Source: Candidatus Dormiibacterota bacterium
GTDB taxonomy: Bacteria > Chloroflexota > Dormibacteria > Aeolococcales > Aeolococcaceae
DNA length: 64,000 nt
Direction of reading: 5' to 3'
NCBI GenBank assembly: GCA_963823765.1
Contig: CAWGML010000003.1
Span: 99,329 to 163,328 of the forward strand
Shown here: in pieces, positions 58,709 through 64,000 of the stretch
How positions within the stretch are numbered: the first letter of the stretch is position 1
Layout: each line of letters opens with the position of its first letter
The notes under the pieces: generated by a model
The model's input: the letters and a program-made list of their open reading frames with translations, nothing else
The model's database searches: none
What the model was told of the DNA's origin: nothing
Translations under genes and position numbers: made by a program

Positions 58709-60345
58709 GCATCCAGGCAGAGGCGCCGCTCTCGGAGGACTCGTCGGCCGCACGTCAGGACGTCGACGTTCTGCGCATCCTGGTCGCGGACCCCATCGCC
58801 GCGGACGGTGTGGACCGCCTCCGCGCGGCCGCGGAGGTGGACGTGGCCACGGGCCTCGCCCCCGCCGAGCTGATCGCGCGCATCGCCGGCTACGACGCGT
58901 TGGTGGTGCGCAGCGAGACCAAGGTCACCGCCCACGTGTTCGCCGCCGCGACCCGCCTTCGCGTGGTGGGACGCGCGGGCGTGGGCGTCGACAACATCGA
59001 CATCGAGGCGGCCACGCGTCACGGCGTGCTCGTCCTCAACGCGCCCACCGGCAACACCATCGCGGCCGCGGAGCATGCCGTGGCGATGTTGCTGGCCCTC
59101 GCGCGCAACATCCCCGCCGCCGACGCCTCGCTGCGCGCCGGTCGCTGGGAGCGCTCCAAGCTCATGGGCGTCGAGCTCCGGGACCGCACCCTCGGTGTGC
59201 TCGGGCTCGGCAAGATCGGCTTCGAGGTGGCGCGCATCGCCGGCGAGGGACTGCGCATGCGCGTCCTCGCCCACGATCCCCTGGCGACGCACGAGCGCGC
59301 AGAGCAGTCGGGAGCGGAGCTCGTGGACATGGAGACCCTGCTGACCGAGAGCGATGTTCTCACCGTCCACGTCCCTCTCACCGAGCACACTCGCGGTGTC
59401 ATCGGGGCCGCGGAGCTGCGTCGCATGCGCCCCGGCGCGCGGGTCATCAACGTCGCCCGCGGTGGGATCATCGACGAGTCGGCGCTCGCGGAGGCGGTGC
59501 GCGACGGCGTCATCGCGGGTGCAGCCATCGACGTGTTCACCACGGAACCGGTTCCCGAGGGGCACCCGCTCATCGGGGTTGACGGCATCATCGTCACCCC
59601 GCACCTGGGGGCGAGCACGGCCGAGGCCCAGGTCAACGTCGCGGCGGACGTCGCCGACCAGATCGTCGAGTACCTGCGCGGCGGCTCGCCCCGTTACGCG
59701 GTCAACGCCCCCGCGGTCAACCCCGAGGAGCTGGCTCGGTTGCGGCCCTATCTCGAGGTGGCCCGCAAGATGGGCTCTCTGGCGGCGCAGCTCAGCAGCG
59801 GCGGCGTGCAGAGGGTGATCTGCAGCTACGCCGGGGAGCTCGCCGAGGTCGACACCACCCTGGTCACCGCCGAGGTGCTGCGCGGCCTGCTCGGCCACTT
59901 CTCCGACGCCCGGGTCAACGCCATCAACGCCAAGACGGTGGCCCGCTCCATGGGTGTCGACGTCGACGAGCACACCACCACGCGCAGCGTCGACCACGCC
60001 AACTCGGTGTTCGTCGAGGTGGTCGGTGAGCGGCGCCTGCTCGTGGCCGGCACGCATTTCGACGGCGCCCCCCGGATCACGCGCATCGACGACTTCCGCG
60101 TCGACATGCAGCCCTCGGGCACCTTTCTGGTGGTGCAGCACGAGGACCGGCCCGGTGTGATCGCGGCGGTGTCCTCACTTCTGGCCAGCAACGACATCAA
60201 CATCGCGCGCATCGAGCTGGGTCGTGATCATCCGCGCGGGCGAGCCGTCATGCTCATGGAGATCGACGACGCGATCGACGCCGCCCTGCTCGAGCGACTC
60301 GCGTCCGTCGCGAAGCTCGAGCAGCTGCGCCAAGTTCGGCTGTAA
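58705..60345 (+). CDS. serA: D-3-phosphoglycerate dehydrogenase (with ACT domain); no canonical start codon
   Basis: RILVADPI, RAGVGVDNID, GLGKIG, NVARGG, PHLGAST and HEDRPGVI. The start is probably CTG 58705 or CTG 58771. Confidence 0.9.
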   Translation: MSIQAEAPLSEDSSAARQDVDVLRILVADPIAADGVDRLRAAAEVDVATGLAPAELIARIAGYDALVVRSETKVTAHVFAAATRLRVVGRAGVGVDNIDIEAATRHGVLVLNAPTGNTIAAAEHAVAMLLALARNIPAADASLRAGRWERSKLMGVELRDRTLGVLGLGKIGFEVARIAGEGLRMRVLAHDPLATHERAEQSGAELVDMETLLTESDVLTVHVPLTEHTRGVIGAAELRRMRPGARVINVARGGIIDESALAEAVRDGVIAGAAIDVFTTEPVPEGHPLIGVDGIIVTPHLGASTAEAQVNVAADVADQIVEYLRGGSPRYAVNAPAVNPEELARLRPYLEVARKMGSLAAQLSSGGVQRVICSYAGELAEVDTTLVTAEVLRGLLGHFSDARVNAINAKTVARSMGVDVDEHTTTRSVDHANSVFVEVVGERRLLVAGTHFDGAPRITRIDDFRVDMQPSGTFLVVQHEDRPGVIAAVSSLLASNDINIARIELGRDHPRGRAVMLMEIDDAIDAALLERLASVAKLEQLRQVRL

Positions 60346-61094
60346 TGGCCGGCGAGGCGCTGCGCGCCGAGACGGTGCAGGTCACCGGGGCGGGCGGCGA
60401 CTCCATCGAGGCCTACCTTGCTCGGCCCCTGGCAGCGGGCCCGCTGGGTGGGGTGGTGGTCATCCACCACATGCCCGGGTACGACCCCGCCACCAGGGAG
60501 ATCACCCGGCGCTTCGCGGCGATGGGCTACAACGCGATCTGCCCGAACCTGTACAGCCGCGAGGCCCCGGGCGCCAGCCCTGACGACGCGGCCGCGGCTG
60601 TCCGGGCGGCCGGCGGCGTGCCCGACGACCGTCTGGTCGGCGACGTCGGAGGAGCCGCATCACACCTGCGCTCGCTCGACAGCGCCAATGGACGGGTGGG
60701 GGTGATCGGCTACTGCTCGGGAGGCCGGCAGTCGTTCCTGGCGGCGTGCAGCCTGTCCCTGGAGGCCGCCGTCGACTGCTACGGCGCTTTCGTGGTGGCC
60801 CCGCCGCCCAGCGACCTGCCCCTGCGCGCCCGTCCCCTCGTCCACCTGGCGCCCCAGCTCTCGTGCCCGCTCCTCGGGTTGTTCGGCGCCGAGGACACGC
60901 ACCCCTCGCCGGACGAGGTGGCCGAGCTCGATCGCCTCCTCACGGAAGCGGCCAAGCAGCACGAGTTCCACGTCTTCGAGAACGCCGGCCACGGGTTCTT
61001 CGCCGTCGACCGGCCTATGTACAGGCAGGAGGCAGCGGTGAAGGGATGGAAGCTGATCGCCGAATTCTTCGGCAGGCACCTGGCGACGAGGTGA
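60345..61094 (+). CDS. Dienelactone hydrolase family protein
   Basis: Cys nucleophile GYCSGG, GAED and GHGFF. TAATG coupling to serA. Confidence 0.9.
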   Translation: MAGEALRAETVQVTGAGGDSIEAYLARPLAAGPLGGVVVIHHMPGYDPATREITRRFAAMGYNAICPNLYSREAPGASPDDAAAAVRAAGGVPDDRLVGDVGGAASHLRSLDSANGRVGVIGYCSGGRQSFLAACSLSLEAAVDCYGAFVVAPPPSDLPLRARPLVHLAPQLSCPLLGLFGAEDTHPSPDEVAELDRLLTEAAKQHEFHVFENAGHGFFAVDRPMYRQEAAVKGWKLIAEFFGRHLATR

Positions 61095-61098
61095 TGCC

Positions 61099-61347
61099 AT
61101 GTGCACGTACGTGACCAAGCGCGTGACCCTGGATGGCAGCAGTGGCAAGGGCCCTGACGGCTGGTTCGACCTGACCGACGCCAGCGTGTACCTCGATCAC
61201 CCGGTCCATGCCGGCGCGGAGCACACCCTGAACATCGACTTCCTCAACCCGCAGGCGGGTCCCGCGGCACGGGTCGCCGTCGAGCTCACCCCCGACTGCG
61301 CACGCCGGCTGGCCGCCGCCATCCAGGCCGTGCTCGGACCCGGCTGA
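61099..61347 (+). CDS. Small conserved protein (DUF6295-like)
   Basis: MCTY, SGKG..GW, YLDHPVHA..EHTLNIDF and RVAVEL. Family name from recall. Confidence 0.7.
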   Translation: MCTYVTKRVTLDGSSGKGPDGWFDLTDASVYLDHPVHAGAEHTLNIDFLNPQAGPAARVAVELTPDCARRLAAAIQAVLGPG

Positions 61348-62317
61348 CCACCGGGGCGCGTGGACGCGGCGCCGTGGCGGAGCGCAGCTTCCTGAGCGGG
61401 GTGGCGGCGCGCAGCAGGCGAGTGTCTGCATAGGCGACGCCGCTGCCGCTGGCTCGCAGCCACACCGTCCACCAGGAGAGCAGTCCGCGCTCGAGGAGCC
61501 AGGCCGGCGCGCAGAGAGACGTGTACCACGGGAAGACGGCGCGCCCCCCGGCACGACGCCTGCCTCCCTCGGCGGCGGCGATCACCACAAGCGCGGCGGC
61601 GGCGGCCGTCCGTCTGCCACCGCGCGCCACCGCCGGGAGGACGCACAGCATCGCCGCCAGGCGGAGCGGCTGCGCCAGGTCGTCGTAGGCCTGTCGCGGC
61701 CGCTGCGCGAGGAAGTGGCGCACGGTGGGTGGGCGCCGGGCCACGAGCAGGCCCGGTGCGACGTGCACCCGCCCGCCGCCGGCCACCACGGTGCGCACCA
61801 GCTCGCAGTTCTCGAAGAGGACGTTGCCGTCGTAGCGCGGGGTCGCGCGCAGCGCGCTCCGCCGTACCACAAGGGTGCCCGGCCAGTCGTGCGCGATCAG
61901 GCGGTTGAGCAGGATCCGGCCCGTGTCCCAGGCAGCGTGCCAGGACATCGGCTCGAAGTAGTTGGCCGGCAGCACGAGGTCGTAGCCCTCCAGCGCGATG
62001 GCGGCGCGGGTCAGGGTGTCGCCGTCCCAGCGCACGTCGTCGTCGGCGATGACCACGGTGTCGTGGCGCGCGTGACGCAGGCCGGTGAGGACAGCCCATG
62101 CCTTGCCGTTGGCGCAACGGTCCCGTTCCTCGGGCGGGAGGTGCACGGCGACGCCCGCGAACAGCGCAGCGTGCCGCTCGAAGATCGGGCCCGGCGAGCC
62201 GTCGACGATGACCATGTCGACCTGCGCGGCGAGGCGACGCAGGTACCGCGCCAGCTCTCCCTCGGACTCCGCCGCTGCGTGGTCGCGGCGCAGGGCGAGG
62301 AGGTAGGTGAGCGTCAC
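61286..62317 (-). CDS. GT-A fold glycosyltransferase family 2
   Basis: VIVDGS, ANGKA, IADDDVR (DxD), DWPGT, YDGNVLFEN, RQAYDD and C-terminal TM segments. Confidence 0.82.
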   Translation of the reverse strand: MTLTYLLALRRDHAAAESEGELARYLRRLAAQVDMVIVDGSPGPIFERHAALFAGVAVHLPPEERDRCANGKAWAVLTGLRHARHDTVVIADDDVRWDGDTLTRAAIALEGYDLVLPANYFEPMSWHAAWDTGRILLNRLIAHDWPGTLVVRRSALRATPRYDGNVLFENCELVRTVVAGGGRVHVAPGLLVARRPPTVRHFLAQRPRQAYDDLAQPLRLAAMLCVLPAVARGGRRTAAAAALVVIAAAEGGRRRAGGRAVFPWYTSLCAPAWLLERGLLSWWTVWLRASGSGVAYADTRLLRAATPLRKLRSATAPRPRAPVVSRVRARPGWRRPAGVRSRG

Positions 62318-62922
62318 CGGTTGGCGATCACCTCGATGTCGATCGGTTTGAAGCTGCCGTTGTTGGACTGTTCGGCCGAACAGGCGGTGATGCCCACCAC
62401 GAGCGCGCTCTCCGCACGGAGGACCATCCGCGCGCCGGCACCCGACAGCGGCGGGCGCACGCTGAGCTCACCGCTGTCACCGATGGCGACGTTCATGAAC
62501 ACGTTGAGCGTCGCGGTGATGTCCCGCTCGTCGACCTCCATCGGCGCGAGGCTCGAAGCCAGGTTCTCGAGGCAGCTGGGATGGTGGCCTCGGTAGCCGT
62601 GCAGGATGGTGAACATCTCGGCGCTGCAGGGCGCCAGCAGGATGTCGTGCACGCCGCACGTGTCCTCGACGATGCTCATCAACCGTCGGCTGTGTCGCGA
62701 CCACAGGACGCTCCCGGTGGTGAGGCGGAGCCTGCCGTTGTAGTCCATGGTGCGCCCCGAGCTGAGGCCGTCGGTGAGGTCGTCCTGCGGGAAGCAGGTG
62801 AGATCGGCGACCTGTTCGCCCTGCGGGTCGATGACCACCAGGAGCTCACCCGACTGTAGGCGCACCGCGGTCCCGCTCTGCGGAGGGATGCGTCGCTGCA
62901 GCGAGGTCGAGAAGAGGCTCAC
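62314..62922 (-). CDS. DUF1989 / urea-carboxylase-associated family protein
   Basis: DPQGEQVADL, LSSGRT, DTCGVHDILLAPC, HPSCLENL, NVFMNV and TACSA. GTGA overlaps on both sides. Confidence 0.88.
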   Translation of the reverse strand: MSLFSTSLQRRIPPQSGTAVRLQSGELLVVIDPQGEQVADLTCFPQDDLTDGLSSGRTMDYNGRLRLTTGSVLWSRHSRRLMSIVEDTCGVHDILLAPCSAEMFTILHGYRGHHPSCLENLASSLAPMEVDERDITATLNVFMNVAIGDSGELSVRPPLSGAGARMVLRAESALVVGITACSAEQSNNGSFKPIDIEVIANR

Positions 62923-63614
62923 GAACCGACCCGCACGTGGAGGGGACAGCGCCACCCCTCACCCACGGCATCACCGGCGTACTGGCTCGCCTCAGATATC
63001 GCGCCGTGGTCGCGCAGGGTGGGGTTGACCGAGCCCTGCAGACCGGCATCGCGGCCACGGATCACCGTCCGCATCCGCTCGTATGCCCCCCGCTCGCGCA
63101 ACGCGGTGAACTGTTCATGGGGGTTGAACACCAGGGTGGGCCACGCGAACCGGCGCGCCCAGCGGGAGCTGCCGGCGTGCAGGCCGATGACGAAGTACGC
63201 CGTGCCCGCGACGCTGAACGAGAAGTCGGGGTCGCCCGGGTCCGCGCTGACGCGGGGATCCCATGCGTGCGCGACGTGGTCGAGGTCGTGAAGGTGCTGG
63301 AGCTGGCGCCAGAGAAGCGCGCTGAACCGCGCCTCGCTCATCGCCCCGGGCTGGTTGAAGACCGCCACCAGCGACGTCAGCTCGCCGGGGACGATGCGTT
63401 CGCCGAAGAGGGTGAGGTCCGCGTTGAGCGCTCGCGCTGCCCCGACCGTGCCGAGGCGATCGTAGAGGTGCAGCTCGTAGGCATTGCGGCGCACCACCGA
63501 TCGCGCGCCCAGGCAGGGGTGCCCGTCACCACCGGCGAAGCCCTCGAAGGCTCCGGTCACGAGCTGCAGGAGGGGCGCGTCCGAGGCTCCCGCCGCCGCA
63601 GACGTTATAGCCAC
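62919..63614 (-). CDS. YqcI/YcgG-family heme-dependent oxygenase (GntA-like guanidine N-hydroxylase family)
   Basis: HPCLGA (FPC-type Cys), FSFSVAG..YFVIGLH, SR..RRF, LVFNPHEQF, RD..LQG..NP and EASQY. TAACAT -10 6 nt upstream. Confidence 0.82.
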   Translation of the reverse strand: MAITSAAAGASDAPLLQLVTGAFEGFAGGDGHPCLGARSVVRRNAYELHLYDRLGTVGAARALNADLTLFGERIVPGELTSLVAVFNQPGAMSEARFSALLWRQLQHLHDLDHVAHAWDPRVSADPGDPDFSFSVAGTAYFVIGLHAGSSRWARRFAWPTLVFNPHEQFTALRERGAYERMRTVIRGRDAGLQGSVNPTLRDHGAISEASQYAGDAVGEGWRCPLHVRVGS

Positions 63615-63733
63615 ACTACAATGTTACTGTATAGCTATCTCTTCAGGTATCCGGCGGTGACGGCGCTCGCTCACGCTGGCAAACGCATCGCAGACCCCGC
63701 GCAAGGAATCTGCGTTCCGGGACGTTTCTATCA

Positions 63734-63841
63734 GTGGGTCGGCGGTCGCGTGGCTGTCGAGAGCAACTGCCTTTCAGGAAGGGAGACCGAGGCGGGGGGA
63801 TGCACTCCCTGCTACCTCACTGCTGGCGCCGCCCGACCCAC
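63734..63841 (+). ncRNA. Candidate ~108-nt long-hairpin RNA or leader (strand uncertain)
   Basis: GTGGGTCGG/CCGACCCAC closing stem extends with bulges through GAG/CTC, AGCA/TGCT and GGGAG/CTCCC. Confidence 0.35.
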
Positions 63842-63887
63842 CACCACCCTCGCTGCGGTCGGGGCCTCTTCGCTCAGACTGGCGCGC

Positions 63888-64000
63888 ATGGCAGACGTGC
63901 GACCACTCCGAGGGATCCGCTTCAACCCCGCGGTCGTGCACCTCGGCGGCGTCCTCGCGCCCCCGTACGACGTCATCGACGACGCGCAGCGCGAGGCGCT
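63888..64000 (+). CDS. DUF1015-family protein, 5' fragment
   Basis: MADVRPLRGIRFN...VLAPPYDVI, the typical DUF1015 N-terminus. Confidence 0.8.
   Translation, partial: MADVRPLRGIRFNPAVVHLGGVLAPPYDVIDDAQREA

Follow-up and report, generated by a model that had tools for sequence, protein, structure and literature searches.

What do genes for a YqcI/YcgG-type oxygenase, a DUF1989 protein and a GT2-type glycosyltransferase accomplish when they are chained together? This question is raised by a locus in a 64,000-nucleotide (nt) stretch of DNA (positions 99,329 to 163,328 of contig CAWGML010000003.1, assembly GCA_963823765.1; hereafter the window) from an uncultured soil bacterium of the Dormibacterota, whose genome comprises 2.65 Mb and is 82.6% complete. 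An earlier reading of the window (the initial annotation) had proposed an undescribed guanidine-modification pathway for three co-directional minus-strand open reading frames (ORFs) in the order YqcI/YcgG, DUF1989 and GT2-like, and the ORF listing and the sequence gave the same coordinates for them. Its observations held up, and its interpretation was borne out in part. We consider the chances about even that the three genes act as one operon in an uncharacterized small-molecule or lipid-head-group pathway with a two-enzyme module as its core, in which N-hydroxylation of a guanidino group would be followed by processing through the DUF1989 protein and then, optionally, by sugar transfer. The components belong to known families. 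The pairing of YqcI with DUF1989 and the coupling of GT2 to this pair are undescribed, and a literature search retrieved no paper that names YqcI/YcgG and DUF1989 together or describes the pair.

The core of this proposal was derived from a survey of 80 loci encoding relatives of the window YqcI protein (34 to 75% identity). A DUF1989 homolog was found in 76 of them; it was co-directional in 71 and started no more than 300 nt from the YqcI stop codon in 65, often overlapping it. The loci belong to the Dormibacterota, Verrucomicrobiota, Gemmatimonadota, Actinomycetota, Bacteroidota, Pseudomonadota, Rhodothermota, Planctomycetota, Myxococcota and WPS-2; the Acidobacteriota, reached by the reverse search with the GT2-like protein that is described below, bring the total to eleven phyla. 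With the DUF1989 protein as query, a sensitive search through 1.8 billion representative proteins revealed four natural YqcI-DUF1989 fusions in four independent protein clusters, with YqcI at the N terminus and DUF1989 at the C terminus. The contigs that carry the fusion genes measure 74 kb to 1.6 Mb, and RefSeq proteins of Nannocystis are among their products. No fusion of all three proteins was present among the best 150 DUF1989 representatives. At the level of the genus, we compared 25 relatives for close orthologs of the three genes. The three orthologs were together and adjacent in G000, G002, G005 and G012, which are genomes of the window genus (three besides the window's own), and were detected in none of the 10 genomes from other genera of the order. 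In G008, the GT2-like gene is intact next to SerA, the YqcI gene is gone and the DUF1989 gene is reduced to a 63-residue 3′ remnant, directly followed by a conserved intergenic element and a DUF1015 gene (L169, contig 95, ~170-2940); judged from its sequence, this locus is a natural decay product of the operon. Adjacency across phyla, fusions and the genus pattern together indicate that the pair is a functional unit, and the genus pattern further indicates that the trio constitutes an accessory block, passed on and lost together. The adjacency of YqcI and DUF1989 in at least 11 phyla, with occasional fusion, therefore points to a real, unstudied and testable pathway. Both families also gave matches in the control genomes of Bacillus subtilis and Deinococcus radiodurans; in B. 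subtilis, ycgG and ycgI are presumably adjacent, with the permease gene ycgH between them. Cultivable carriers of a YqcI homolog include Humibacillus xanthopallidus, Chryseobacterium takakiae and Terrabacter ginsenosidimutans.

All three family assignments of the initial annotation were confirmed by profile hidden Markov model searches. The YqcI protein, encoded by a single gene in the genome, matched the Pfam family PF08892 (YqcI_YcgG) with 173 bits (cut-off, 27) and the NCBIfam equivalog NF041366 (GntA_guanitoxin) with 254 bits (cut-off, 145). The characterized enzymes of the YqcI/YcgG family, which has more than 4000 members (PMC11177257), are thiolate-heme guanidine N-hydroxylases that require an external ferredoxin/reductase (PMC12866846, PMC11177257), in agreement with the premise from which the initial annotation started. 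Invariant in 26 YqcI homologs were C34 (within an HPC motif), S150, R151, R154 and the stretch from V162 to F169 (VFNPHEQF). Profile alignment, at a remote E value of 4e-5, placed the HPC motif on the YPC motif of AglA, in which Cys44 is the axial heme ligand (PMC12866846); C34 matches this axial-ligand cysteine of the family (AglA Cys44, ChmN Cys47). The AlphaFold2 (AF2) model of YqcI (predicted local distance difference test [pLDDT] score of 90) displayed the AglA-type sandwich fold, and Foldseek aligned it to the AglA structures 9ubb, 9ub5 and 9ub3 with TM scores of 0.79 to 0.80 and an E value of 1e-10. A phmmer search of the PDB with YqcI returned no match, and AglA was reached only by profile and fold search. 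Family membership thus predicts that the window YqcI protein is a heme enzyme that N-hydroxylates guanidino nitrogens. It shares the Pfam family, the N-terminal cysteine and the sandwich fold with AglA, GntA, DcsA, ChmN, AmbT and Mhr24; unlike the window protein, the characterized members are encoded in antibiotic or toxin clusters, and none is paired with DUF1989.

The equivalog match calls for a comment on nomenclature. NF041366 matched all 26 tested homologs of the DUF1989-linked subfamily, which originate from many phyla, and the RefSeq YqcI-DUF1989 fusions of Nannocystis (P0271, P0272) carry the name GntA. Here, the neighbors of YqcI are DUF1989 and GT2, with no toxin cluster. Since the model matches every one of the 26 subfamily members, the name GntA is no sign of guanitoxin synthesis, and the NCBI designation “guanitoxin biosynthesis GntA” is probably, or even very probably, a systematic over-annotation.

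The DUF1989 protein matched PF09347 with 173 bits and, like YqcI, is encoded by a single gene in the genome. It could be aligned with the structures 3oru and 3siy and with that of Tdm (9q59). The zinc site of Tdm consists of three cysteines with a histidine nearby (PMC12560246); C99, C117, C181 and H114 are the counterparts of these zinc cysteines and of the neighboring histidine, and the three cysteines were invariant in 28 DUF1989 homologs. The window protein thus resembles Tdm, whose substrate carries an N-O bond, in its zinc site; unlike this bare domain of 202 amino acids (aa), Tdm, at ~790 aa, also contains a further DUF1989-like domain and, at its C terminus, a GcvT-like domain, and the Tdm model NF053776 gave only 89 bits (cut-off, 1100). 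The domain and the zinc site are also shared with CgdAB, which, as the initial annotation had assumed, is a heteromeric DUF1989 enzyme (PMC11271267), and the two may have in common the attack on a guanidine carbon that is activated by an N-substituent. In contrast to the two paralogous subunits of CgdAB, the window has one gene of homomeric type, which remained below the cut-offs of the CgdA/CgdB-type (UAAP1/UAAP2) models TIGR03424 (110 bits; cut-off, 285) and TIGR03425 (89 bits; cut-off, 206).

The third protein is a divergent one. The Pfam families PF00535, PF13506 and PF13641 (GT2, GT21 and GT2_3) were each matched with ~30 bits, just above their cut-offs. The family motifs DGS, DDD and QRxRQ are kept, and the invariant residues comprise D39/S41, D92/D94 of the DXD motif (D92-D93-D94 conserved) and Q205-R206-x-R208-Q209. 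In the AF2 model (pLDDT, 91.8), a GT-A domain is followed by long helices (residues 199 to 289), and Foldseek placed the model nearest to the membrane GT2 enzymes PcManGT, ArnC, DPMS, GtrB, BcsA and HAS (E value, 2e-8). The protein shares the GT-A fold, the DXD motif and C-terminal helices with PcManGT, DPMS, ArnC, GtrB and the hyaluronan and cellulose synthases, and differs from them by an identity of only 10 to 20%, by QRxRQ in place of QxxRW and by weak hydrophobicity. The membrane association stated in the initial annotation needs to be toned down to a deduction: the fold is nearest to membrane GT2 enzymes, and hydrophobicity is modest, with a best 19-residue Kyte-Doolittle window of 1.37 (homologs reach 2.46). 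Based on the model, the protein is a predicted sugar transferase of the GT-A type whose C-terminal helical region is probably membrane-associated. Its relatives have ~320 aa; the last ~30 residues of the window protein, the coding region of which overlaps the DUF6295 gene, were modeled with low confidence.

The initial annotation had treated the trio as the unit whose co-occurrence matters. Linkage of a GT2-like gene does extend beyond this genome, since a homolog was found near the pair in 21 of the 80 loci, from six phyla; however, 59 loci were without it, and the conserved unit is the pair. The position of the GT2-like gene varies. It follows the pair downstream in the same direction in the Dormibacterota, is inserted between the pair genes in one Rhodothermales genome and precedes the pair upstream, again co-directionally, in WPS-2; its orientation is divergent in the Chthoniobacterales and convergent in the Gemmatimonadota. 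This variation favors functional linkage over frozen synteny, and the third partner of the pair, the GT2-like gene, is facultative.

A reverse search with the GT2-like protein showed that this family has other oxygenase partners. The best 80 loci were mostly from Actinomycetota (~50% identity), and these had neither YqcI nor DUF1989 within 5 kb. In 38 of the 80, the GT2-like gene was preceded by a gene for an HDO-type “iron-containing redox enzyme” (PF14518), often together with a methyltransferase gene, and the nearest solved relatives of this HDO are the N-oxygenases RohS, HrmI and SznF. Micromonospora accounted for 25 loci with a gene for a CYP152 fatty-acid peroxygenase no more than 4 kb from the GT2-like gene, in many cases directly upstream. 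This actinobacterial pairing of oxygenase and glycosyltransferase is an uncharacterized operon in its own right; actinomycete examples within L087-L161 are found at L149:3964-5001, L138:3569-4816 and L090:3214-3957. In a maximum-likelihood tree of 96 GT2-like proteins, partner type was strongly clustered: the YqcI-linked clades were apart from the actinobacterial HDO clade, and the CYP152 clade was nested in the latter. Altogether, a gene for one of the iron oxygenases YqcI, HDO and CYP152 was found no more than 4 kb away from 86 of the 96 GT2-like genes. ChmN, a YqcI protein, replaces the HDO domain of SznF-type enzymes as guanidine N-oxygenase (PMC11177257), a precedent that makes an exchange of YqcI and HDO beside one transferase family credible. 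The evidence for this exchange is circumstantial, because partner type also tracks taxonomy. SznE/SznF and ChmM/ChmN thus exemplify interchangeable HDO and YqcI guanidine N-oxygenases, and the situation here is similar in that one GT2-like family stands beside YqcI in some phyla and beside a methyltransferase and HDO in the Actinomycetota; it differs in having no cupin N-nitrosating domain, no nonribosomal peptide synthetase and no known product.

Based on these relationships, we propose that YqcI would N-hydroxylate a guanidino group with O2 and electrons from a housekeeping ferredoxin system, as its family membership suggests; arginine, or an arginine- or guanidine-derived compound, may be the substrate. 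N-hydroxylation lowers the basicity of guanidine and could therefore act as an ATP-free activation. In a second step, a homomeric zinc DUF1989 enzyme may process the N-hydroxyguanidine by C-N cleavage, deimination, hydrolysis or rearrangement. By analogy, N-hydroxylation would be the activating counterpart of the N-carboxylation in the CgdAB pathway, in which guanidine is attacked only once N-carboxylation has made it reactive (PMC11271267). Finally, the GT2-type transferase, as an optional add-on, would glycosylate either this product or a membrane or lipid acceptor.

Several observations weigh against this sequence of events. The operon contains no gene for a reductase partner, and the DUF1989 protein could act before the hydroxylase instead of after it. 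A YqcI homolog was absent in 12 of 12 tested actinomycete genomes with the GT2-like gene, and G008 keeps the GT2-like gene without YqcI; the function of the transferase is therefore independent of the pair in G008 as in the Actinomycetota, and its acceptor need not be the product of the pair. Moreover, the neighborhoods differ between phyla, so that one common pathway is not assured.

If N-hydroxylation followed by DUF1989 processing is extended from this operon to the pair in general, the pair would represent a widespread, unrecognized, O2-dependent way to cleave or convert the very stable guanidinium group, in which N-hydroxylation takes the place of ATP-dependent carboxylation and precedes cleavage by zinc-DUF1989. 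Hydroxylamine, hydroxyurea or nitric oxide (NO)-type products would be possible, and in some phyla the pair may, through GT2, feed an envelope glycoconjugate. We put this extension forward only tentatively.

A biosynthetic role is a possibility that we also rate well below an even chance. The product of the operon would then be either a guanidino metabolite that is both N-oxygenated and glycosylated or a membrane lipid with a modified head group; the acceptor of GT2 would be lipid-linked or hydroxylated, and the head group would be tailored by the pair. Every characterized YqcI member is biosynthetic (PMC12866846), and the fold of the GT2-like protein is nearest to membrane GT2 enzymes that use lipid-phosphate acceptors or are processive. 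In Gemmatimonadota (L023:3490-9707; L008 and L037 likewise), the YqcI and DUF1989 genes are located among genes for an MprF-flippase-like transmembrane protein, a phospholipase D (PLD)/cardiolipin-synthase-like protein, a convergent GT2-like protein and a diaminobutyrate (DABA)-decarboxylase-like pyridoxal phosphate (PLP) enzyme, a gene content suggestive of lipid head-group chemistry. The PLP enzyme is likewise found with the GT2-like gene in Chthoniobacterales (ten loci overall), and genes for UDP-galactopyranose mutase, galactokinase and GT4 are added in some Chthoniobacterales and Rhodothermales loci. Such neighbors hint at glycoconjugate or lipid-head-group chemistry in some lineages, although not in all of them, and the CYP152 fatty-acid peroxygenase that precedes the GT2-like gene in Micromonospora points in the same direction. 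However, a GT2-like gene is missing from the vicinity of the pair in the 59 loci mentioned above, the window GT2-like protein is weakly hydrophobic, no lipid genes flank the trio in the Dormibacterota and it is hard to see what DUF1989 would contribute to such a pathway.

It is rather unlikely that the module is catabolic or detoxifying, that is, that nitrogen is released from guanidine or a guanidino compound in an ATP-independent, O2-dependent manner by N-hydroxylation and DUF1989 hydrolysis, with the GT2-like gene being unrelated or only loosely connected. CgdAB, the only characterized stand-alone DUF1989 enzyme, deiminates an N-activated guanidine in catabolism (PMC11271267, PMC11410670), the pair is mostly without biosynthetic neighbors and, among close relatives, it occurs patchily, as an accessory trait. 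Yet the genes are not linked to any transporter, urease, allophanate hydrolase or nitrogen regulator, no guanidine riboswitch was detected in the window and the GT2-like linkage recurs in six phyla. Still less probable is a release of NO, nitroxyl (HNO) or hydroxylamine, for which YqcI would produce N-hydroxyarginine in the manner of the first NO synthase (NOS) half-reaction and a Zn/Fe DUF1989 would convert it to citrulline or ornithine and reactive nitrogen species. YqcI members do make N-hydroxyarginine (PMC11177257), and an N-oxide is the substrate of Tdm, which belongs to the DUF1989 enzymes (PMC12560246). NOS heme domains follow AglA among the fold matches of the YqcI model, but these matches are nonsignificant (E value, ~0.1), no NO-responsive genes are nearby and the idea is pure analogy.

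With regard to the standard guanidine pathway, the searches of the genome and the window agreed with the initial annotation that there is one DUF1989 gene, no guanidine carboxylase and no riboswitch. The urea/guanidine carboxylase model TIGR02712 found only partial matches of the biotin carboxylase plus biotin carboxyl carrier protein (BCCP) type in the genome, with no carboxyltransferase part. No Rfam riboswitch was detected in the whole window at the gathering score or in the region 63550-64000 at an E value of ≤1; a distant tRNA was the single hit. In these respects, and in the lack of an allophanate hydrolase, the window differs from the CgdAB pathway. Partners of this pathway encoded elsewhere, which the initial annotation had named as an outcome that would count against its proposal, were not found in the genome. 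Thus, although the CgdAB family is DUF1989, a standard carboxylase/CgdAB route with missing partners encoded elsewhere is highly improbable, because CgdAB needs two paralogous subunits where one gene is present, the TIGR03424 and TIGR03425 scores are far under the cut-offs, the DUF1989 gene is instead tied to YqcI in 11 phyla and both a carboxylase and a second DUF1989 gene would have to be located in the missing 17% of the genome.

The layout of the locus is given in Table 1. Both GTGA overlaps, from which the initial annotation had deduced translational coupling, are present in the sequence and support this coupling. Tight junctions were also observed in the Dormibacterota relatives L001 and L084-L086; the YqcI/DUF1989 junction is kept in relatives, and the DUF1989/GT2-like junction has the same form in L001, L084 and L085. 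The operon is bordered upstream by a divergent DUF1015 gene (start at 63888) and downstream by a convergent DUF6295 gene (61099-61347), beyond which genes for a dienelactone hydrolase, SerA and a class-V aminotransferase follow. The 3′ end of the GT2-like ORF shares 62 nt (61286-61347) with the DUF6295 gene. Between SerA and the trio (60345-61347), the genes for the dienelactone hydrolase and DUF6295 come and go among Dormibacterota relatives: compared with the window, L001 lacks both and L086 lacks DUF6295. The downstream border of the trio is therefore a small indel hot spot.

Table 1. Features of the YqcI-DUF1989-GT2-like locus (window coordinates)
Feature	Position	Strand	Details
YqcI/YcgG, GntA-like subfamily, predicted thiolate-heme N-hydroxylase	62919-63614	-	231 aa; PF08892, NF041366
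DUF1989, single-domain protein with Cys3 zinc site and H114	62314-62922	-	202 aa; PF09347
GT2-type (GT-A) glycosyltransferase, divergent; C-terminal helical region probably membrane-associated	61286-62317	-	343 aa; PF00535, PF13506, PF13641
GTGA stop/start overlap, YqcI/DUF1989	62919-62922	-	YqcI TGA 62921-62919 on DUF1989 GTG 62922-62920 (sequence)
GTGA stop/start overlap, DUF1989/GT2-like	62314-62317	-	DUF1989 TGA 62316-62314 on GT2-like GTG 62317-62315 (sequence)
Conserved upstream block: candidate leaderless promoter, possible operator half-sites	63604-63635	-	Alignment of five Dormibacterota loci

A leaderless promoter had been suggested upstream of YqcI, and this suggestion held up as plausible. 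The -10-like box TAACAT (63626-63621) is located 6 nt ahead of the GTG start codon (63614-63612), a gap too short for a Shine-Dalgarno sequence. The box, the GTG and ~32 nt around them (63635-63604) are kept in five Dormibacterota loci, where the remaining spacer diverges; the consensus of the box in this alignment is TA(A)(C/T)(C/A)T. Because the block is conserved against a diverging spacer and space excludes a Shine-Dalgarno sequence, the alignment makes a leaderless transcript starting at the YqcI GTG plausible. A consensus scan of 61000-64000 for two-hexamer sigma-70 promoters and terminators returned none.

The intergenic region also harbors a noncoding element of ~130 nt on the plus strand (63720-63850), just upstream of the DUF1015 start and single-copy in the genome. 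Five or six genomes of this genus contain it with 81 to 90% identity, and it is always positioned ~40 nt before the DUF1015 gene, even in a genome without the trio nearby. The element could form a long closing stem (GUGGGUCGGCGG / CCGCCCGACCCAC) with inner hairpins, in which the loops vary and the stems are constant. It had no Rfam match, the z-scores of its minimum free energy were not significant and covariation was sparse. We regard it as a candidate leader RNA or riboswitch of DUF1015.

Further neighbors of the pair were seen in other phyla. An ORF of 350 to 400 aa that matches no Pfam family and weakly resembles ATP-grasp proteins (carbamoyl-phosphate-synthase-like) stands beside YqcI-DUF1989 in L066 (4834-5970), L052, L060, L064, L070, L075 and L076; it is directly upstream and co-directional in Bacteroidota and on the opposite strand in one Rhizomicrobium. 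The recurrent neighbors in Chthoniobacterales (TamA/TamB-like, a CDF transporter and others) were set aside because they reflect lineage synteny rather than function.

Guanidino compounds such as arginine, guanidine, agmatine and metformin-type pollutants are major nitrogen reservoirs, and few routes that open the guanidinium group are known. If the pair acts as proposed, the two-enzyme module would give functions to the bulk of the YqcI/YcgG family and to stand-alone DUF1989 proteins. The interchange of YqcI and HDO beside one GT2 family would in addition suggest that N-oxygenation and glycosyl transfer are connected in an as yet unstudied way. The finding also very probably exposes a systematic misnaming in databases, in which these proteins appear as “guanitoxin biosynthesis GntA” when nothing suggests toxin synthesis. 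The function of the module is directly testable in cultivable carriers.

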